Below, in pieces: positions 37,833 through 52,192 of a DNA stretch of 64,000 nucleotides. Origin of the DNA: Nitrospirota bacterium (GTDB lineage: Bacteria > JACPQY01); assembly GCA_016190245.1 (NCBI GenBank), contig JACPQY010000011.1:35512-99511 (forward strand). Reading direction: 5' to 3'. The notes below the pieces were generated by a model. It had not been told where the DNA came from, searched no databases, and worked only from the letters and a program-made list of their open reading frames with translations. Each line of letters starts with the position of its first letter. Within the stretch, counting starts at the first letter, position 1. The position numbers and the translations under genes are program-made.

Positions 37833-38978
37833 CTATCGGGGCTTCGCGTGGGCGGCCTCCTTGTCTGTTCGCACGGTGGGCGGCACCGGTGCCTTCACCG
37901 CATGTCCATCTTTCCCGCCGTCCTTTGAAGCAGCCAGCGCGGCGGCCTCGGCAACGGAGGGCGCCTCGGCAGGCGCAGGCCGCTTGATCCCGGCCGCGGC
38001 CAGGACCTTCTTCTCGATCTCGCGCGTAATTTCCGGATGCTCCATGAGGAACATCCTGGCGTTCTCCCGGCCCTGTCCGAGCCGCTCCTTGCCGAACGTG
38101 TACCACGTCCCCGTCTTCTCGAGGACCTTATGTGTCACGCCCAAATCCAGCAGGTCGGCCTCGCGCGAGATGCCCTGGCCATAGAGCAGGTCGAACTCGG
38201 CCTCGCGGAAGGGCGGCGCCACCTTGTTCTTCACCACGCGCACCCGCACGCGGTTACCCACCACCTGCTCGCCCTCCTTGAGCGACTGCACGCGGCGGAT
38301 GTCCATCCGGATCGAGGCGTAGAACTTGAGCGCGTTGCCGCCCGTTGTGGTCTCTGGGTTGCCGAAGAGGACGCCGATCTTCATCCGGATCTGGTTGATG
38401 AAAACGATGATCGAGTTGGAGCGGGAGATGGTGGCCGTGAGCTTGCGTAGCGCCTGGGACATGAGCCGCGCCTGCACGCCCATCTGGGGGTCCCCCATGT
38501 CGCCCTCGAGCTCGCTCTTGGGCACGAGCGCCGCCACGGAATCAATTACGACCACGTCCACCGCCCCGCTGCGGATCAGCGTGTCCGCGATCTCGAGCGC
38601 CTGCTCGCCGTTGTCGGGCTGGGAGAGGAGGAGATCGTCCGTCTGCACGCCCAACTTCTTCGCGTAGCCGACATCCAGCGCATGCTCGGCATCAATGAAG
38701 GCCGCGGTCCCTCCTTCGCGCTGCGCCTCGGCAATCGCGTGGAGGGCGAGGGTCGTCTTGCCGCCGGACTCGGGACCGTACACTTCGATCACGCGGCCGC
38801 GGGGGTAGCCCCCCACGCCCAACGCGATGTCCAGTCCGATCGCCCCGGAAGGGATGACCTGGATGTCGCGGGCCAGCGCATCCGTGCCGAGTTTCATCAC
38901 GGCGCCTTTTCCGAAATTCTTCTCGATCTGGGACAACGCGAGGTCGAGTGCCCGCTTTCGTTCCTGCTTGTCGATCAT
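37833..38978 (-). CDS. recA: Recombinase A
   Basis: [36 protein letters not shown]. Confidence 0.99.
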
Positions 38979-39104
38979 GACTCCCCCTTTCGCCCGCCAC
39001 GATGCACCGCAAAGCCTAGCACGTTCCCGCGGGGCTGACCACTTGCACCGGGAGGGGAATCCAGTGGGGGCCATTTGATCGCAACTCGCCTTCGATCTAC
39101 CATC

Positions 39105-39554
39105 ATGCCCGTGTCCCAGCCCGATACCGATGCCCCAGCCGAAATCCTCCGCGGCGCCAAGACGATTGCCGTGGTCGGCCTCTCGGCGGATCCCGAGAAG
39201 GACAGCCAGGTGATCGCACGATACCTGCGCGACCAGGGCTACCGTGTGATCGGCGTCAGCCCCAACCCCAAGCTCAGGGCCGTCTGGCCCGACTCCGTCG
39301 CGCGCCTTTCCGAGATTCGCGAGCCCGTGGACATCGTCAATCTGTTCCTCCGGTCGGAGGCGGTGGCGCCGGTCGTGGATGAAGCGATCGCGGCGGGGGC
39401 GAAGGCGATCTGGATGCAGATCGGGGTCACCAACGAGGCAGCGGGGGCCAAGGCGGAGAAAGCCGGCCTCAAGGTGGTGATGAACACCTGCATCCGGACG
39501 GCCCATTCGCTGCACGTCCGATCGCGCGCGGGCCAGCCATCTTCCCACGTATGA
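39105..39554 (+). CDS. CoA-binding protein (YccU-like)
   Basis: [25 protein letters not shown]. Confidence 0.9.
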
Positions 39555-44279: not shown

Positions 44280-45104
44280 TCACGATATCGTGACGCTGCT
44301 CTTCTTTCCGAAAGGTGGATTGGTCAGGACCATCTCGTAGTGGCGACCGCCTTGGTCCGCGAGGGCATCCCGGACATCAATGGGCACCTTGTCCGCACCA
44401 TTGCCTCCGATGCCGTGGAGGAGGAGATTCATGCAGCATAGACGGGCCACTCCGTCCACAAGCTCGATTCCGTAGAGCGTTCCGCTCTTGAGGCGCTTTT
44501 TCTGCTCGCGGTCGAGCGTGTGGTGTTGGGCGATGTAGTCGTGAGCCGCGAGAAGAAACCCGCCGGTTCCGCATGCGGGGTCGCAGAGGGTCATTCCGGG
44601 CTCGGGCCGCATCACGTCCACGAGGGCGGCGATGAGCGGACGCGGCGTGAAGTACTGGCCGGCGCCGCCCTTCACGTCCTCCGCGTTTTTCTGGAGAAGC
44701 CCCTCGTAAGCGTCACCTTTTACGTCGGCGGACAGGGACGACCAATTCTCCTTGTCGATCAGGTCCACGATGAGTCGCCTGAGTTTTGCGGGGTCCTGAA
44801 TCTTGTTCTGGGCTTTCCGGAACACGAGTCCAAGCATGCCCTTCTCTTTTCCGAGCGATTCCAAGACGCGCCGGTAATGCGTTTCGAGTTCTTCGCCATC
44901 GCGGGCCGACAAACTCGGCCAGTCGGAGCCTTTCGGGATGGGAGAGGGCTTGTTGATCGGCGGCCGCGTCTGCTCATCCGCCATCTTGAGGAAGAGAAGG
45001 AACGTCAGTTGCTCGACGTAGTCGCCGTACGACAGCCCGTCATCCCGCAAGATGTTGCAGTAGTTCCAGAGCTTCTGGACGAGTTGTTGGGAATGGTCAG
45101 CCAT
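44280..45104 (-). pseudogene. hsdM: Type I R-M methyltransferase HsdM, C-terminally truncated
   Basis: GAGQYFTPR, DPACGTGGFL, NPPF; stop ~10 codons after NPPF at 274 aa, downstream sequence shows no HsdM-like continuation. Confidence 0.88.
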
Positions 45105-45151: not shown

Positions 45152-45370
45152 TCATTCGGCCCGAAGTTCCTTGAGATGCCGCGAAGACTCCCGGGCCTGC
45201 TCGCCGGTGTAGTACCGCGTCCGGCAATGGGAGCAGTACATGAACCGATCCTTGTGGAGCCGCCAGGTTTTCCCTTCGACGACCACCTTGCGGCAACCTA
45301 TGGATTCCTTCGCCTCCCCTTTCCCGCAAACGCTGCACTTTTCGACCTTCACGACTTTCGGTCCTCTCAT
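45152..45370 (-). CDS. YgiT/MqsA-type zinc-finger protein
   Basis: CSVCG...CSHC..RYY..E pattern, 72 aa. Confidence 0.75.
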   Translation of the reverse strand: MRGPKVVKVEKCSVCGKGEAKESIGCRKVVVEGKTWRLHKDRFMYCSHCRTRYYTGEQARESSRHLKELRAE

Positions 45371-45438: not shown

Positions 45439-45831
45439 CTATTCCAAGCTGGCTGCAATCAGATGTCGAAAGATGTTGTCGCAGTACGTGTTCGCTGCCG
45501 CTGCCGCCAATCCAAGTTGGCCGTGCTTGAAGACCTCGTCGTAGTCCGCGGAACGGCGGTATTCCAACAGCTTTCGGAGGTCGCCTCCCAATTTCTGCCG
45601 ATAGATCTGTCTGGATCTCGCGAATTGATCCCGGACAAAGGCGTGGACCTCTCTGTCGGGCAGAGCTACCCCACCCATGACCAAGAGGGATCGCGAAAGG
45701 TGATAAGCTGCATAGTACGCCCTACTGATTGCGGATCTCCAGAGCGCCTCAACTTCACCGGGATCCTTCCCCACCCGCTGATTGACCAACCAGCCTGACA
45801 ATTTCCGGTACTCATCCCAGGCAAAACTCAT
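45439..45831 (-). CDS. HEPN domain protein (UPF0332-like)
   Basis: RSAISRAYYAAYH, H..V, RRSADYD; ATGA overlap with upstream gene. Confidence 0.85.
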   Translation of the reverse strand: MSFAWDEYRKLSGWLVNQRVGKDPGEVEALWRSAISRAYYAAYHLSRSLLVMGGVALPDREVHAFVRDQFARSRQIYRQKLGGDLRKLLEYRRSADYDEVFKHGQLGLAAAAANTYCDNIFRHLIAASLE

Positions 45832-46385
45832 GTGAACGCCGGCAGAATGACGATCAGCCCGGAGGATGCCATCGGTTGTTTGAGCCACCATTTGAAGTCG
45901 AACCGGTCCAGCCCTTCGATTGCGTCTTCGGGCGCCATTCCAGTTTCGACCTGTACGACCAGGTACTCCAATCCTTCTTCCTCATCCTTCGCCAGGCTCA
46001 ATTGGAACCCGGTTACTTCCGGAACAAAACTACGGACCTGCTCGGGAACCTGCGCGAGCACGTCTTTCAGATCACCGTGTTCACGCAGGAAGGTCATCAC
46101 GAGTCCATGGTCCAGAATGCGGTACCACTTCAGCAGGCTGGGAGAATCAACACTGGCCGCCAGGGAGGGCTGGCTGACTGCAATCGTCCATTTGCTCCAA
46201 TCGATGGAGTCCGACGTGAGTCTCAGGGTGTTGCAGACGGGCCGGGCCTGCGACTCCACAATCACTTTGGGGATACCCATTGAACCGGGACCCAGCGAAG
46301 TGGACCCCCGCTGAGGTGGAGACCAAGGTGCCATGACGGAGGAATACTTGATGGCTGGCTCGCGGCCAGGGAGTCCGAGGTTCAT
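45828..46385 (-). CDS. Hypothetical protein, HEPN-associated (candidate antitoxin)
   Basis: V..FL..H..L...L....QV..F....L....D.E..L.V...T....A...LD.FD..WWL pattern; zero-gap and ATGA coupling on either side. Confidence 0.7.
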   Translation of the reverse strand: MNLGLPGREPAIKYSSVMAPWSPPQRGSTSLGPGSMGIPKVIVESQARPVCNTLRLTSDSIDWSKWTIAVSQPSLAASVDSPSLLKWYRILDHGLVMTFLREHGDLKDVLAQVPEQVRSFVPEVTGFQLSLAKDEEEGLEYLVVQVETGMAPEDAIEGLDRFDFKWWLKQPMASSGLIVILPAFT

Positions 46386-47129
46386 CTACGCCGCCTTCTG
46401 CCGGCCAAATACGTCTCGGAGCCGGTCGGTTACGCATGATTCGAATGTGTCCTCGACCTGCCGATGCGCGTTCTCCACCCACGACAGCATGGCTGACGAT
46501 TCGAAGGCGGGCCTCTCGAACGAAAAGAAGTCGAGGTCGAATATCATTCCCATGTGTCCTGCTTTTGCCGCCTTCTGGCTGAGCAACTGTAAACGGAGCC
46601 GATTCCTTCCCTCATCGCATAAAAGCTCAAATCCGGCCATGAACGCAGCCACCGGGGGATGTCCCCCATAGTCAAAGTAAGGGAAGAACCGGAGATAGTC
46701 GCCAATCCGCGCATTCTCAGGGATCTCGAAATGATTGATATAGCGAAGGGTCTGCCCTTGGATTCCCTTCGGCTGGGCGATGGTCATGTACTCGCGCAGT
46801 GCATGCTGAATCATCGGTAAGTAGTTGACCCAACGCTCGTAGGGGTTGAGGCGGCTGACGGCCAATACGTGCGGCCCCAGAAGGATGATGCTCTTCGCGT
46901 TAGAAGTGGAGAACCGAATGACGGGAGTTGTTCTGACCTCTTGCTCGAGGATTTCGGATTCAGACTTTATCTGCGAATCGATCCGGGTTAGATCCTGCCT
47001 TTGAGAGAACTCGGACTGGATGGCTTGATAGTACATGCCCGGAACCGTGCTGTCCCACGGGCCTGATGGGTCAAACCGAAACTCGCAGACGGCCTCATGA
47101 AGAGGAGGGGTTACGTATTTTCCCGGCAT
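46386..47129 (-). CDS. TIGR04255 family protein
   Basis: Y..PPL.EAVCEFRF, PY..W, LRYIN, DLD, H...FE...TD motifs. Confidence 0.85.
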   Translation of the reverse strand: MPGKYVTPPLHEAVCEFRFDPSGPWDSTVPGMYYQAIQSEFSQRQDLTRIDSQIKSESEILEQEVRTTPVIRFSTSNAKSIILLGPHVLAVSRLNPYERWVNYLPMIQHALREYMTIAQPKGIQGQTLRYINHFEIPENARIGDYLRFFPYFDYGGHPPVAAFMAGFELLCDEGRNRLRLQLLSQKAAKAGHMGMIFDLDFFSFERPAFESSAMLSWVENAHRQVEDTFESCVTDRLRDVFGRQKAA

Positions 47130-47197: not shown

Positions 47198-47860
47198 TCA
47201 CTCGTATGCCACGAAACGCGGTGCGAGCATCTTCGCAAGCGCGGGCGTGCCGGCCTCCGGGATGAGTGGCGCAAATCCTTGAACACACGTGGGATTCCAC
47301 GTGAAGAAAATCCCCGCCAATCGGTCGATCGGCTCGGATCTCAGAACGTTGATGGCCGCCTGGATTTCGGCGTCTTCAACGTTGTGGGCGCTTTCAGACC
47401 ACAGGTATACGAAGAACATGCCCCTCGTACCATCGTTCTTCGATGCCTTCTTGCGAATGGCTTCAATCAACTGCGCCTGCACTTCCTTCGGATTGCCGTA
47501 CTCGGGGAGCACCCCGGTTCCCCGAGCTTCGCGGAACCGCCTTTCATCATTGGCGTCTTCGTCGCGCCACCGAAATTTCTTCACCTCGATCGCCATCTCT
47601 TCCGTTGAGAGGCGGACCATCAGATCGGGGTGTTCGCCGAATTCCAAGCGTGAAACACTTGGTAGGGAGATGAACTGAGCAGCCGCACGAATCTCCGTCG
47701 CGATATCGGCCGCGGTGTCAGGCGATTTCGCGTTTTCACGGATTTGCTCCAGCTTGCGGCCGAGGGAATCCTGATCAACGGCGCTGCTTTCGCGGAGTGC
47801 TTGCAGGCATGCCCTGAATTGTTCATCTGCGGGCAGCTCACCCGTCGTCGGCGCATTCAT
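47198..47860 (-). CDS. Putative PD-(D/E)xK nuclease-like protein
   Basis: E...HPDL-x9-IEVK motif; ATGA overlap with hsdS stop. Confidence 0.65.
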   Translation of the reverse strand: MNAPTTGELPADEQFRACLQALRESSAVDQDSLGRKLEQIRENAKSPDTAADIATEIRAAAQFISLPSVSRLEFGEHPDLMVRLSTEEMAIEVKKFRWRDEDANDERRFREARGTGVLPEYGNPKEVQAQLIEAIRKKASKNDGTRGMFFVYLWSESAHNVEDAEIQAAINVLRSEPIDRLAGIFFTWNPTCVQGFAPLIPEAGTPALAKMLAPRFVAYE

Positions 47861-49215
47861 AGCCCGCCCGAGAACGCCGCGTGCAAGATGGATTGGCGAA
47901 GGCGGGAGGCGCGGGAGAGGTTGGTGGCGACGACTTTTTCCAATTCCTTGACCGCGCTCAACCGGCGCTCGACTTCGGCGAAGATGCGGAGTTGCGCGGC
48001 AAGCGGCGGGATGGGTATGGGAAGGCTCTTCAGGGTCTCGATATTGATTCCGGTATACGCGATGCCCTTGGTACGTGCCAGCAACCATGCCTGGGAACGA
48101 GGAGAAGCGATGAAAATGCTCGTGGCCCGCGCAATTCCTGAGTCTACTAAGGCAAGCATTGCCACTTCACGAGAAATGTTGAAACCCGAACACTCGCGAG
48201 GAATCACGACCACCCCGCCTAGCGTTCCGCGGACGGTTACAAGAACCTCATCGCCTTGTAAGAAAGTGCGTTTGAATCTGGCGGCGATGCGAGGAGACAC
48301 GCGCTTCACATTCCCCAGGCCAAGTTGTAGGCTGCGGACGTCGCTTGATCTCAATACGGGAATGCCATTCTCGACCGAATCTCCAAGATTGATTACACCG
48401 TACGTTATCGAACGAACTGGATCGGTCAGTTGTTCGGCTGTTGCCCACGCCCAGCCATCAGGGAGTCGGGGGAGGTTGGAGGTGTCCGGGGGCTTGGGGT
48501 CGACGTATTTCTTATTGCGACCATTTTTCTTCTGATCTTTTTCCCAGGCTTCGCGGCGGGCGGAGAGGATGCGTGCAAGGAGTTGGGCGCCGGTTTCAAA
48601 GGGGCGACCTTCCTTGCGGGCGAGTTCGGCTTCGGTGGGAACGAGTTTCCCTTCGCACGCGGCTTTGAGAACGGCGGCGCGGTAGCGTTCCAGATTGGCC
48701 TGCACGCGCTTGAGCGCGGCCACCCCCGCCTCCAGCCGGGTGAACTGTTTCTCGATCTCGGCAACGATCCGCTGCTGTTCCCTTTCCGGCGGAACCAGCA
48801 CGGGAATCTGCTTCATCGGTCCCTGCGGTAGCTTCAAGCGTGTGGTTCCACTGACATAGGGGCGATAGTCGAGATTGTTCAGTTGGTAGAGGAGAAAGGA
48901 ATTCAGCAGTCCCGGCTTGGCCCGGAGCACATGCGCGTGATTACTTACCCACGACTTGCCGCGAATCAGATAGGCTTTCGGTTTCGTTGGATCGAGGAAC
49001 GGAGCGCCATCCTCGCCAAGAAGGACAAGTTCTTCATCGAATATAGGTGTGTCGATCCAGCCCACTTGGCCCGTCGCCCCGTAGTACGGAATCTGCCCCT
49101 GGCGTTTTTCCCGTTCCGTACTGTTGACGGGAATTCGATGTGAGTCGAGAATGTCCACTGCCTCTCTCAGTGGAACGGTGGCATGCCCAGCCTCAGTCGT
49201 GATGCCAGTGCTCAC
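47857..49215 (-). CDS. hsdS: Type I R-M specificity subunit HsdS
   Basis: Two TRDs, each followed by P.PP..EQ..IV.E conserved repeats; LPDGWAW; LRQSIL..AFSG.L. Confidence 0.95.
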   Translation of the reverse strand: MSTGITTEAGHATVPLREAVDILDSHRIPVNSTEREKRQGQIPYYGATGQVGWIDTPIFDEELVLLGEDGAPFLDPTKPKAYLIRGKSWVSNHAHVLRAKPGLLNSFLLYQLNNLDYRPYVSGTTRLKLPQGPMKQIPVLVPPEREQQRIVAEIEKQFTRLEAGVAALKRVQANLERYRAAVLKAACEGKLVPTEAELARKEGRPFETGAQLLARILSARREAWEKDQKKNGRNKKYVDPKPPDTSNLPRLPDGWAWATAEQLTDPVRSITYGVINLGDSVENGIPVLRSSDVRSLQLGLGNVKRVSPRIAARFKRTFLQGDEVLVTVRGTLGGVVVIPRECSGFNISREVAMLALVDSGIARATSIFIASPRSQAWLLARTKGIAYTGINIETLKSLPIPIPPLAAQLRIFAEVERRLSAVKELEKVVATNLSRASRLRQSILHAAFSGGL

Positions 49216-51992
49216 GCCGCCAAGGCCTCGTTGAGTTCATCCAGCAGCTTCGGAAAAGATTCGCCGAAAAGCCGGTGCGCCTTGCCGAGTCCGCCGCGCT
49301 GACTGAAGGGGGAATAATCGAAATCCTGCGGCTCAATGCTCAGACTCGTGGCGATGTGGTCGCGGATGAGTTCGAGCCACGCCAGTTGCTCGTCGCTGAA
49401 AGAAGTCCCGTTGGAGATCTTGGCCAAAACCCATGTCTTGAACCGAGCGTGGACGCTCTCGGCGAACGGTTCAAGAACCGGCTGGTGGGCCAGAGAGAAG
49501 TGAACCAGCGATACGAGGTCTGCAAATCGGCCCGCTTGGGATCGTCCGCGCACTTTCGTCGGCTCGACGGCGGCGAAGGCATCCCAAAGACGGTCCTCGG
49601 TCCACGCCGCATGGTTTTCCCGAAGCTTCCGTTCCAGATCCTTCAACATGGCCTCCGTCAGCCGGTGGCGATAGGGACGAGAATAAAGAATCTGAAGCGC
49701 TTCGATCTCGGACTTGTGCTTCTCGATGTAATCGCGAAATGACACTGTGGTCTTCCGAGCGTTAAGATCAGACTGGGTCGTGCCTCCGGCAAAGAGAACG
49801 CGGTCCCTTGAAATCACGTCGATGACTTGGTCCGCCGTCCGATGCACTTTGATCAAGAACTGCCGTAGATCCGGATTCCCCGCGAGTGGCGCGGCAGCCG
49901 CCTGCGCAAGGCCATCGGCAGCGGCTTTCAAGGACGTGGCGGTCGGTTCCTTGTAGCCCGGCGGACCACCACCTGCCGCCGCCAGGATCTTGTCCGGATT
50001 GGCGGCGTCAAGCAGGCTACCCGCAATTTCCGAAAGCGTCCTGCCTTTCGCCGTCGCCTGCACTTCCGAAACGAGGTGATCGTCGAGTCGCTTTTCCAAT
50101 CGGATCAACCGGTTGGCCAGACTTTCCAACGAATCGGCATCCCGTGCCCCCAGCGCCACGGCGTCGAGAAGTTTCTCGAATGGAACATTGGGCTTCTTCT
50201 CAAGCGGACGGGAATCGGTCTTGTCCCGTTCGCAGACCCCGACGGCATCCACGATCACGAACCGCGATTTTCTCTTAATCCCGGGATTGACCTGCTCCAT
50301 CTCCGTTTCCGAGATCACGCGCACGCCCCGACCCTTCATCTGTTCGAAGAAACTGCGCGACTTGACTGAGCGCATGAAGAAGACGATTTCCAACGGCTTG
50401 ATGTCCGTCCCCGTCGCGATCATATCGACGGTGACGGCAATGCGCGGGTCGTAGCTGTTCCGGAACGTCTTGATGAGAGTTTTCGGGTCCACGCCGGTGG
50501 TGAGATACGTGATCTTCTGGCAGAAGTCGTTCCCCTTGTCGAAGACTTCGCGACAGATGCGGACGATATCCTCCGCGTGGGAATCGTCCTTCGCGTAGAT
50601 CAACGTCTTGGGAACGTTCTCGCGTCCCGGAAAGATCTCAGTAAACAACTTATCCCGAAAGGTCTCGATCACGGTGCGAATCTGGTCCTCGGCAACGACT
50701 TCCCGGTCGAGCTGATTGGCCTCGTAGGTCAAGTCCTCATCGAGCTGTTCCCACCGTTTCTTGCGCGTGAGGCGGTCGCGTTTGTCGACGTAGAATCCGG
50801 CATCCACCTTCGAGCCGCTCTCGGTAATCTGCGTCCGGATTTTGTATACATCGTAGGGCACGTTGACGCCGTCCGTTACCGCCTGCTCATGGCCGTATTC
50901 CATCACGAGATTTTGCTTGAAGAAACCGAAGGTCTGTTTCGAGGGCGTGGCCGTGAGGCCGACGAGGGTGGCGTCGAAATATTCCAGGACCTGGCGCCAA
51001 AGGTGGTAGATCGAGCGATGGCACTCGTCCGTGACGATGAAATCGAACGTCTCGATGGGGAATTTCGGATTGTACTCCACGGGGACGGGTTCCTTGAAGC
51101 CCGATTCCGCCGCTTCGATGCCGAGGTCGTCCAAATCGGGCGGCGGCTGCGTTTCGCCCTTCAACATGGAGTAGACGCGCTGAATGGTTCCGATCACGAC
51201 GCGGGCGGAGGTGTCGAGCGTGTTCGAGGTCAGATGCTGAATGATATGTTCGTTCGGAAACTTGAGGTTGTTGACCGGGGATTCGAACTGTTGGAATTCT
51301 TTCAGGGTTTGATCGCCGAGGTTTCCCCGGTCCACCAGGAAGAGGATTCGGCGGGCGCCGGCGTATTTGACGAGACGGTAAACGAAATTGACCGCCGTGA
51401 ACGTTTTCCCCGCGCCGGTGGCCATCTGGATGAGCGCCCGGGGGCGGTTCGCGGCGAAGGATCTTTCCAGATTTTCGATGGCCGTGATCTGCGCGGGCCA
51501 CAGGGCCTTTTCGACCAGTGGGGGCATTTCGCGGAGCCGTTGGTGGAGTTGCTTCTCGGCTTTCACCCAGTCGAGGAGCGTTTCGGGACGGTGAAACGCG
51601 AACACGAGGCGGCTGCGGGGCTCTGGATCGAGTCCGTTGGTGAAAAACGTTTCCATGCCGGTGCTCTCATAGGCGAATGGAAGTGGATCCCGCCACGCCT
51701 GCATGCCGGAAGGTACTCCCCTGATGTACTTCCCGGACTGTTCTTCGACGCCGCTGAGGGTGTGACCCTCCTTCTTGGCTTCAACCGTTCCGATGGCCTT
51801 GCCGTCCACGAACAAAGTGTAGTCCGGCTCGCCGGTTATCATGGAAAGATTGCAGAGGGCCACGCCACTTGAAGCGGCGAGATTCGCGCTCGACTTTTCC
51901 TGGACGGCCCACCCGCAACGCTCCAAGATCTCATCGATGTTCCCCCGAGCTTTGTCTTCGGGTGTTCTTATGCGTGGGCCTGGGGGGATCAT
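49212..51992 (-). CDS. hsdR: Type I R-M restriction subunit HsdR (EcoEI-like C-terminus)
   Basis: PDY..VEAK nuclease motif, MATGAGKT, DECHRS, LTATP, QMKGRG; GG.GKA..LFG C-terminus. Confidence 0.95.
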   Translation of the reverse strand: MIPPGPRIRTPEDKARGNIDEILERCGWAVQEKSSANLAASSGVALCNLSMITGEPDYTLFVDGKAIGTVEAKKEGHTLSGVEEQSGKYIRGVPSGMQAWRDPLPFAYESTGMETFFTNGLDPEPRSRLVFAFHRPETLLDWVKAEKQLHQRLREMPPLVEKALWPAQITAIENLERSFAANRPRALIQMATGAGKTFTAVNFVYRLVKYAGARRILFLVDRGNLGDQTLKEFQQFESPVNNLKFPNEHIIQHLTSNTLDTSARVVIGTIQRVYSMLKGETQPPPDLDDLGIEAAESGFKEPVPVEYNPKFPIETFDFIVTDECHRSIYHLWRQVLEYFDATLVGLTATPSKQTFGFFKQNLVMEYGHEQAVTDGVNVPYDVYKIRTQITESGSKVDAGFYVDKRDRLTRKKRWEQLDEDLTYEANQLDREVVAEDQIRTVIETFRDKLFTEIFPGRENVPKTLIYAKDDSHAEDIVRICREVFDKGNDFCQKITYLTTGVDPKTLIKTFRNSYDPRIAVTVDMIATGTDIKPLEIVFFMRSVKSRSFFEQMKGRGVRVISETEMEQVNPGIKRKSRFVIVDAVGVCERDKTDSRPLEKKPNVPFEKLLDAVALGARDADSLESLANRLIRLEKRLDDHLVSEVQATAKGRTLSEIAGSLLDAANPDKILAAAGGGPPGYKEPTATSLKAAADGLAQAAAAPLAGNPDLRQFLIKVHRTADQVIDVISRDRVLFAGGTTQSDLNARKTTVSFRDYIEKHKSEIEALQILYSRPYRHRLTEAMLKDLERKLRENHAAWTEDRLWDAFAAVEPTKVRGRSQAGRFADLVSLVHFSLAHQPVLEPFAESVHARFKTWVLAKISNGTSFSDEQLAWLELIRDHIATSLSIEPQDFDYSPFSQRGGLGKAHRLFGESFPKLLDELNEALAA

Positions 51993-52120
51993 AGGAGAAT
52001 CACCCTGGGGGGACAAGCTTACGGGCGTGCAGGTTGGGACCCCCCACGCGCCCCTGCACAGCGACAAAGAGGGATGGAAAACAGGGGTGAGGTCGGCTAA
52101 CCTTGCCAAGACACCACAGA

Positions 52121-52192
52121 GCCGGCGTAGCTCAATGGTAGAGCGAGGGTCTCATAAGCCCTAGGTCGGCCGTTCGATCCGGCCCGCCGGCA
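52121..52192 (+). tRNA. tRNA with CAT anticodon (elongator Met or Ile2)
   Basis: GCCGGCG/CGCCGGC acceptor, AGGGT-CTCATAA-GCCCT anticodon arm, GTTCGATCC T-loop; paired 1:72 so not fMet. Confidence 0.92.

Follow-up and report, generated by a model that had tools for sequence, protein, structure and literature searches.

In the toxin-antitoxin-chaperone (TAC) systems, such as HigBAC, CmdTAC and Rv1955-1957, a SecB-like chaperone is combined with an antitoxin carrying a chaperone-addiction (ChAD) extension, according to two papers (PMC5105189, PMC6377645). A preprint reports that a phage tail protein competes with the chaperone-addiction element (bioRxiv 10.1101/2024.02.24.581848), and these sources describe TAC systems as modular and antiphage. 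Here, we analysed a stretch of 64,000 nucleotides from a Nitrospirota bacterium (contig JACPQY010000011.1, positions 35,512 to 99,511 of the forward strand; the whole stretch is called the window below), and within it a cassette of three small genes lying in a type I restriction-modification (R-M) operon. They encode, in this order, a protein of the TIGR04255 family, a middle protein that we call MID and a HEPN-like protein. We lean towards the view that this cassette is a tripartite toxin-antitoxin (TA)-like unit, in which TIGR04255 would be a shared accessory partner.

The cassette resembles the TAC systems since it is tripartite, since one accessory family serves several unrelated TA-like pairs, and since the putative antitoxins that would depend on the accessory protein carry an extra unstructured segment. 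However, TIGR04255 has neither a sequence nor a clear fold relation to SecB and is encoded first, not last; moreover, the extra segment of MID is N-terminal (residues 1-80) and not a C-terminal ChAD, the C-terminus of MID being a folded core.

The HEPN-MNT systems (HepT/MntA, type VII) are similar in other respects. The HEPN-like protein is of the small, nucleotidyltransferase-associated kind (PF05168 / UPF0332 relatives), its gene directly follows and overlaps that of a small partner, and a Tyr is conserved beside the Arg motif. In contrast to these systems, MID is not a recognisable MNT (no Pfam match in 56 members, an hhalign probability of 0.2% and a weak fold likeness to 1ylq, Z 5.7), a third gene is present, and the catalytic His is replaced by an Asp. 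Hyperpromiscuous antitoxin domains (Panacea/SocA) and combinatorial TA networks also join one conserved component to many toxin families, and a SocA_Panacea gene even occupies the same position in a related hsd operon (L186). The Panacea domain, however, is part of the antitoxin chain, and TIGR04255 is a protein of its own, encoded upstream of the putative antitoxin. Finally, a HEPN-type gene inside an hsd operon recalls PrrC of EcoprrI and other HEPN genes embedded in R-M operons (PMC3710099). PrrC, however, is an ABC-ATPase-HEPN fusion that has an Rx4-6H motif and that the Hsd proteins restrain; in the window, HEPN is a stand-alone chain of 130 aa with no other domain and with its own upstream partner, and the cassette is mostly found outside R-M loci.

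Three tightly coupled genes

Unless another locus is named, coordinates are positions within the window, and the genes of the cassette and of the hsd operon are all on the minus strand. The cassette is composed as follows.

46386..47129, minus strand: gene 1, TIGR04255 family protein, 247 aa (NCBIfam TIGR04255)
45828..46385, minus strand: gene 2, middle protein MID, 185 aa, putative antitoxin (relatives, AlphaFold2 core)
45439..45831, minus strand: gene 3, HEPN-like protein, 130 aa, PF05168 / UPF0332 type, putative toxin (family profile)

An earlier note on this DNA had stated that the TIGR04255 stop abuts the next ATG and that the middle gene overlaps the HEPN gene by ATGA. Both junctions are indeed as described. 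The TIGR04255 stop codon (46388-46386) is followed without any gap by the ATG of MID (46385-46383), the boundary being at 46386/46385, and TCAT at 45828-45831 of the plus strand reads ATGA on the minus strand, so that the MID stop overlaps the HEPN ATG by 4 nt. The same coupling recurs in related operons, and the junctions are therefore not due to chance. Of 81 operons, 63 have a gene-2 start at -8 to +2 nt relative to the end of TIGR04255; among these 63, 26 show a 4-nt overlap and 8 have abutting codons, as in the window. Likewise, the MID-HEPN junction lies within -8 to +3 nt in 60 of 74 cases (4-nt overlap in 37). The public gene call for MID begins at M36 and gives a protein of 150 aa; since the coupling is family-wide, it favours the 185-aa form predicted here. 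The HEPN-like open reading frame (ORF) begins MSFAW, a start shared by a relative (P0003).

TIGR04255 heads operons with exchangeable downstream pairs

The first protein of the cassette matches NCBIfam TIGR04255 with E 5.2e-35 and 121.5 bits, for a cut-off of 30, over model positions 2-251 of 252, and the whole-genome search gives the same match. The protein belongs to no Pfam family, and PADLOC has no model for TIGR04255. In PHROGs the only matches were phrog_5464 and phrog_5176, two families without an assigned function; a search of the ESM Atlas with a stored TIGR04255 homologue returned TIGR04255 clusters only, and the TIGR04255 profile had no match among the PDB sequences. According to the earlier note, no characterised system was known to have this composition. 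In agreement with this, our literature search yielded no paper naming TIGR04255, its aliases or DUF7689; the HEPN-T, NetFlax and Panacea surveys may list TIGR04255 or the MID family under another label.

We then considered TIGR04255 independently of HEPN, by sampling Pseudomonadota and Chloroflexota. Carriers were 42 of 401 genomes in the former and 33 of 401 in the latter, compared with 0 of 14 control genomes and 2 of 2 genomes of the small phylum to which the window belongs. From this sampling 59 loci were fetched, of which 11 have MID and/or HEPN downstream of TIGR04255. Most of the remaining loci have two other small, coupled genes at this place. Clustering of the downstream proteins indicated that the gene-2 and gene-3 families pair specifically: MID with HEPN; a VapB-like protein of ~125 aa with PIN; a 'W(D/N)G..A...EPDG' family with three related families of 115-155 aa; a 'HPAYQQIIGMG' family with DUF7689, also in the sister genome G001; HTH (helix-turn-helix) proteins and others with 'SQxCD' proteins; and one gene-2 family whose partner is PemK or a 223-aa protein. 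By Pfam, the gene-3 products are PIN in 5 cases, PemK in 1, DUF7689 in 4 (three loci and the sister genome) and HEPN in 2, and a HicA match on one gene 3 is under the cut-off. One row within these counts is L116 (genome G444, flagged as unpublished), on which no claim rests by itself. On the TIGR04255 tree, the proteins are clustered by downstream module, with at least 20 changes against a mean of 44.5 after shuffling; a value as low was reached in 0 of 200 shuffles. Because the coupled gene-2 and gene-3 families behind TIGR04255 swap as matched pairs, we consider it reasonably likely that TIGR04255 is the shared third component of tripartite TA-like operons. The tripartite TA-like reading of the earlier note is thus kept in a modified form: its TA-like pair stands, and TIGR04255 becomes a third partner that heads not only HEPN pairs but also PIN, PemK/MazF, DUF7689 and further unrelated pairs.

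In two loci, L091 and L094, almost the same TIGR04255 protein (tree branches of 0.08 and 0.09) is followed by different gene-3 products. The first 82 residues of their gene-2 products share 57% identity (E 1e-31) and the last ~45 are unrelated; their gene-3 products, PemK and the 223-aa protein, are also unrelated. By this comparison, the N-terminal part of gene 2 travels with TIGR04255 and its C-terminal part with the putative toxin.

Members of the TIGR04255 family were also seen in other settings. One is carried by a Thermus megaplasmid, adjoining VapBC, a DNA methylase and cas6, and in a Pseudomonas phage a weak match lies just past the gene for the cI repressor. The TIGR04255 operon of the sister genome G001 (L082:5956-11609), with its DUF7689 pair, adjoins two AAA-type ATPase genes, a gene resembling DUF4276, and genes similar to hsdR and hsdM, again a defence island. 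Since this operon carries the DUF7689 pair and not MID-HEPN, it offers no orthologous locus for comparison.

Conservation and probable mobility of the MID-HEPN pair and of the triad

Scanning 185,579 species genomes with a sequence pattern gave at least 418 HEPN relatives, from which 79 loci were kept. A MID gene, recognised with the family profile, is directly upstream of HEPN in 71 of them; it was not found in L049, L052, L068, L070, L071, L075, L076 and L077, mostly Planctomycetota bins. TIGR04255 is in turn directly upstream of MID in 23 of the 79 loci by profile and in 22 by tblastn or phmmer. These triads are present in Caldisericota, Chloroflexota, Clostridia, Verrucomicrobiota, Bacteroidota, Calditrichota and one Heimdallarchaeota bin. 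The proposal that the triad forms a unit, for which neighbourhood analysis had been suggested, is therefore supported: the arrangement is conserved and coupled in many phyla.

The surroundings of the triads are unrelated to each other, which points to a mobile, self-contained cassette. In a Caldisericota bin (L002; 2893-8930) it is inside an operon, between type III mod and res, with 4-nt and 2-nt junctions; in L064, res is downstream; other triads adjoin an Eco57I-like methylase and an AAA_21+DUF4276 pair (L018; L078); and in L016, hsdS is nearby. Others are inserted between pgk and tpi (L004, L022), adjoin priA and HicA (L003) or adjoin Fic (L023). The pair-only loci are mostly among housekeeping genes (65 neighbour proteins examined), with one of them, L033, flanked by PglZ and a DNA methylase. 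On a tree of the MID core, 13 switches between the triad and pair states are required, and at least 3 of them are imposed by well-supported branches; TIGR04255 is therefore accessory, repeatedly gained or lost. A Calditrichota contig (L053:3075-6309) contains two TIGR04255-MID-HEPN triads in tandem.

The middle protein has a disordered N-terminus and a conserved core

With HMMER, 231 relatives of MID were found at E<=1e-3 among 1.84 billion representatives; a word-based search retrieved nothing apart from the protein of the window itself, in its 150-aa gene call. The relatives share a core of ~100 residues with the pattern L..Y.F....EV..FL..HP.L..LL.EA...I...F.......LEV..DPE.....L...I.T.L.P.EAL..LD.FD..WWL. 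In the window, this core (residues 81-185) keeps the FD..WWL motif and has DEE where the family has DPE. The family has no name in the sequence sources and no PADLOC model; no consistent Pfam or NCBIfam family was found among the 56 members scanned, nor did the family scans reveal a recognisable DNA-binding domain. Against the PDB sequences the MID profile gave a single match, at chance level (E 0.16).

The earlier note had described the N-terminal half of MID as low in complexity. This half is indeed rich in Ser, Pro, Gly and Thr (41% versus 20%), and AlphaFold2 predicts residues 1-80 to be unstructured (predicted local distance difference test, pLDDT, 45-58) and residues 81-185 to form an alpha/beta core (pLDDT >90). 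It is not low in entropy, with 3.37 versus 3.43 bits, so that Ser/Pro-rich and predicted disordered is the better description. The segment before the core differs between both kinds of loci. After TIGR04255, the stretch ahead of the profile match is never shorter than 13 residues (median 48; n=33, with three loci counted twice), whereas in pair-only loci the median is 27 residues (n=55, values that are upper bounds) and about half of the proteins cannot carry the extension (Mann-Whitney p = 0.008, uncorrected for relatedness).

For the core itself, Foldseek gave no match at E<=1e-3, and the best VIA-align score, Z 5.8 with the KH domain of ribosomal protein S3 and with SP14.3, is inside the noise range. 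The similarity to Pol-beta-type nucleotidyltransferases (Z 4.5-5.7; for 1ylq, Z 5.7, with a root mean square deviation, rmsd, of 3.1 over 71 aligned residues) is also within noise. We considered whether MID could be a degenerate MNT and rejected this possibility at the level of sequence, none of the 56 members matching a nucleotidyltransferase Pfam family and hhalign giving a probability of 0.2% against 14 MNTs.

The HEPN-like protein belongs to the HEPN-T branch

The assignment of the third protein to HEPN, made in the earlier note, is weak for the single sequence and holds at the family level. Alone, the protein matches Pfam HEPN with E 0.037 and 14.6 bits, below the cut-off of 22, and PADLOC HEPN_IX with E 0.011; two distant relatives came up in a word-based search, and one is annotated UPF0332/PF05168. 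When the family is considered, 24 of 34 members match PF05168 at E<=0.01 (best 1.8e-9), and the family profile retrieves the solved chains 9xbd (6.8e-9), retron-Kva2 HEPN (2.2e-3) and AF0298 UPF0332 (0.028). By these profile matches, gene 3 is assigned to the HEPN superfamily and, within it, to the HEPN-T / PF05168 (UPF0332) branch.

In the 34-member alignment R32, S33, S36, R37, A38, Y39, Y40, H63, R92, D96 are invariant, H63 being the second invariant His, and Y97 is kept in at least 90%. The canonical Rx4-6H motif is absent from the protein: the corresponding motif is R92-R-S-A-D96-Y97-D98, with an Asp at the canonical His position. Such a missing His fits the 'HEPN-T (PF05168)' row of Anantharaman et al. 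The closest solved relative is deposited in two forms, PDB 9xbd and 9xbc, with a Tyr to Phe change at the residue aligned with Y97, a Tyr that has evidently been probed; no paper describing these two entries was found in the literature.

Predicted fold and conserved residues of TIGR04255

The AlphaFold2 model of TIGR04255 has a pLDDT of 89.4 and a predicted template modelling (TM) score of 0.87, and is built of two beta-alpha-beta4-alpha repeats. The top Foldseek matches are TBPs, with a probability of 0.99 and E 1.6e-4 to 3e-3, for a TM score of 0.27-0.37 and an rmsd of about 12. TBP also appears in the viral structure library, where nothing clearer was found. With VIA-align, the best matches are McsB (Z 8.5, rmsd 4.0, 180 aligned residues), taurocyamine kinase (8.0) and arginine kinase (7.5); lower in the ranking are AdoMetDC, RepDE and TBP (Z 6.1), as well as glutamine synthetase and glutamate-cysteine ligase. 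The fold matches listed do not include SecB, and by sequence TIGR04255 is no member of the SecB family. Since these scores are in a range that the tool calls common without kinship, we take them as leads to a saddle-like binder or an enzyme and make no fold assignment. In the family, E12, N132 and H222 are invariant, and E16, R129, D198, E230 and R238 nearly so.

The hsdS-hsdM gap is a cargo slot

The other features of the locus are the following.

49212..52109, minus strand: hsdR, 965 aa, EcoEI/EcoAI type (Pfam EcoEI_R_C, ResIII, HSDR_N)
47857..49215, minus strand: hsdS, 452 aa (Pfam Methylase_S, E 9.8e-20)
47198..47863, minus strand: cargo ORF of 221 aa between hsdS and the triad, outside the conserved cassette
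45152..45370, minus strand: cargo ORF of 72 aa with CxxC pairs and a weak MqsA-like zinc-ribbon match, outside the conserved cassette
44280..45104, minus strand: truncated hsdM, 274 aa, ending just past the NPPF motif (N6_Mtase profile)
52121..52192, plus strand: tRNA-Met (ARAGORN), at the edge of a lower-GC island

On the minus strand, the order is hsdR, hsdS, the 221-aa ORF, TIGR04255, MID, the HEPN-like gene, the 72-aa Cys-rich ORF and hsdM. The triad is thus nested in a type I R-M operon, as had been noted, downstream of hsdR and between hsdS and hsdM, and it shares this gap with the two further cargo genes. The hsdR product matches NCBIfam NF008521 with E 2.8e-108, below the equivalog cut-off. 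The hsdM product covers only positions 3-138 of the 311 of the N6_Mtase profile, and the remainder of the gene was not found downstream of the 274-aa fragment; because of this truncation, the local type I R-M system is probably inactive. Three further N6_Mtase genes are present elsewhere in the genome. The hsd operon with its cargo forms an island (44.3-52.1 kb) with a guanine plus cytosine (GC) content of 0.55-0.60, compared with 0.64-0.70 outside. No convincing direct repeats flank this island, and the promoter and terminator scan gave nothing useful.

The truncated hsdM has relatives that are up to 83% identical and belong to many phyla, and 80 loci were collected from them (L147-L226). Their order is hsdR, hsdS, gap, hsdM on a single strand, with an hsdM product usually of about 485-500 aa. 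In 49 of 55 loci, hsdS and hsdM are separated by more than 300 bp (median of the gap about 1.7 kb, maximum 6.7 kb). Among the 101 cargo ORFs scanned we observed RhuM (9), Peptidase_M78 with DUF4411 (6), OLD-like AAA_15/AAA_21 ATPases (9), PIN (5), DUF5131 (5), Fic (3), retron-type reverse transcriptases (2) and GmrSD (2); the gap also holds AbiEi/AbiEii, HipA-like+DUF3037, DarT+Macro, SduA, Schlafen, nSTAND3 and the SocA_Panacea gene of L186. An orthologous hsd operon (L166) has a different TIGR04255 triad in this very slot. The gap is therefore a slot in which this R-M family generally carries defence and toxin genes as cargo, and the triad is one of many interchangeable cargos, without a dedicated link to restriction. 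An extra fragment of the hsdM 5' end lies within the cargo of two loci (L166:7686-8345 and L155:4520-4837), which suggests that cargo is swapped by recombination in the conserved hsdM start.

The 221-aa cargo ORF, which overlaps the hsdS stop region, has no Pfam, NCBIfam or PADLOC match and no homologue in the 79 HEPN loci; inspection by eye suggests a PD..(D/E)xK-like motif of the sort found in nucleases of restriction type. The 72-aa protein has two CxxC pairs and weakly resembles an MqsA-type zinc ribbon whose HTH half is missing (Pfam MqsA_antitoxin, E 0.0078; NCBIfam TIGR03830, E 7.3e-5; both under the cut-offs); it too is without homologue in the 79 HEPN loci. An unrelated gene for a secreted protein lies within about 210 bp downstream of the truncated hsdM. 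Elsewhere in the window, an ORF at 37833-39548 on the minus strand is RecA-like, by eye, in its C-terminal two thirds.

How the cassette may work

We propose the following scheme. Gene 3, a HEPN-T type domain, would be the toxin and would likely act on RNA. Gene 2 would be its cognate neutraliser, with a folded C-terminal core that goes with the HEPN family. TIGR04255 would bind or control the unstructured N-terminal extension of the gene-2 proteins and thereby stabilise or release the antitoxin, setting the moment at which the toxin fires, as the SecB-like chaperone does in TAC systems, in which a phage protein competes for it. By analogy with the latter, a role of TIGR04255 as adaptor, sensor or chaperone on the antitoxin tail is a tentative proposal; we rank it first, before an operon regulator and an enzyme. 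The boldest version of the proposal, to which we give a similarly limited credence, is that TIGR04255 is an unrecognised and widespread 'master' TA partner, a sensor-chaperone unrelated to SecB that would grip the disordered tails of unrelated antitoxins. As such, it might arm at least eight toxin families (HEPN, PIN, MazF, DUF7689 and unnamed ones) against phage as exchangeable warheads, a coupled claim that we hold just as tentatively. As for its prevalence, about a tenth of the genomes sampled in two large phyla carry TIGR04255.

Several points weigh against the tripartite reading or its mechanism. A shared N-terminal domain was not found among the gene-2 families, hhalign giving less than 1% in all 15 family pairs. 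A motif search by expectation-maximisation on 63 gene-2 N-termini reached a log-likelihood of 312, for 300 +/- 4.8 (maximum 310) in 20 shuffles, a weak and marginal signal that we take as no more than a lead. The structural matches listed for TIGR04255 do not point to SecB, the best of them being TBP and the catalytic domains of guanidino kinases, and its invariant polar residues would suit an enzyme too. The RNase activity of the HEPN protein is uncertain, since the His of Rx4-6H is missing. Finally, the copies in the window are divergent, with branches of 1.29 and 1.52 on the TIGR04255 and MID trees.

TIGR04255 could instead be the transcriptional autoregulator of the operon, acting through its TBP-like saddle, with MID and HEPN forming an ordinary two-protein TA pair. 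It invariably opens the operon and is coupled to gene 2, as the regulator is first in the tripartite omega-epsilon-zeta and PaaR-PaaA-ParE systems; TBPs head the Foldseek matches and recur in the viral library, and a separate regulator would make sense for a MID protein in which no DNA-binding domain is recognisable. However, the TM scores to TBP are low, at an rmsd of about 12 and a VIA-align Z of only 6.1, some gene-2 proteins already have an HTH (L092 and L120, by weak Pfam matches), and a regulator leaves unexplained why gene 2 shares its N-terminal module with the TIGR04255 type and its C-terminal part with the toxin type; we thus regard this explanation as unlikely. The conserved residues listed above, together with the kinases as best whole-chain matches (protein-arginine and phosphagen kinase catalytic domains, the three with Z of 7.5 or more), speak for an enzyme that modifies the antitoxin or the toxin, or that makes or senses a small molecule, and so switches the toxin. 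In type VII systems the MNT partner AMPylates a tyrosine of HEPN, and the HEPN family studied here keeps a Tyr beside its Arg motif, at the position that differs between the Tyr and Phe forms 9xbd and 9xbc. But a Z of about 8 is typical of models without a true match, the conserved residues do not evidently include the ATP-binding arginine cluster of guanidino kinases, and among the longer proteins searched no fused form of TIGR04255 was found that would hint at a substrate, which is weak evidence; an enzyme seems to us distinctly unlikely.

Two other explanations concern the place of the cassette in the genome. The earlier note had suggested that the triad may guard the R-M system. In a PrrC-type back-up, the Hsd complex would restrain the HEPN toxin and free it when a phage disables restriction. 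The position of the triad within the hsdR-hsdS-...-hsdM transcription unit, the L002 triad between mod and res with the similar one in L064, the different triad in the same slot of L166, and the reported clustering of HEPN-T with R-M operons in several instances (PMC3710099) all agree with this suggestion. Yet an R-M gene is near only 4 of 22 triad loci (L002, L064, L016, L018), the rest being among housekeeping genes such as pgk and tpi, and among the neighbours examined for the pair-only loci, L033 alone shows modification/defence genes. The slot also holds RhuM, M78+DUF4411, OLD-like ATPases, AbiE, DarTG, GmrSD and retron-type reverse transcriptases, and the cassette carries its own neutraliser. 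With hsdM reduced to a 274-aa stump, there is probably no Hsd complex to guard; because of this truncation and because the triad is one cargo of many, a guardian role is unlikely here, and as a general explanation we hold the back-up to be highly improbable. The local copy could, on the other hand, be a decaying, functionless remnant in a degraded defence island, as the truncated hsdM, the window proteins being the most divergent of their families, the HEPN score below the Pfam cut-off and the DEE motif in MID instead of DPE might indicate. But its three frames are open and of full length, their start/stop coupling is intact, and all the invariant residues of the three families are kept, so that we consider a remnant very unlikely.

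What the finding means

The new aspect of the tripartite TA-like reading is TIGR04255 as the common third partner of many TA-like pairs. TIGR04255 is the curated name of a family without function in thousands of annotated genomes, and it would thus gain a testable role. The hsdS-hsdM cargo slot, a hot spot of known kind, can help in the search for new systems, since the type I R-M family that carries it is widely transferred. If the adaptor/sensor role is true, several unnamed candidate toxin or antitoxin families would be gained, namely the MID family, the partners of DUF7689 and the 'SQxCD' proteins, and TIGR04255 would represent a second, independent invention of the TAC principle, with one sensor for many warheads.

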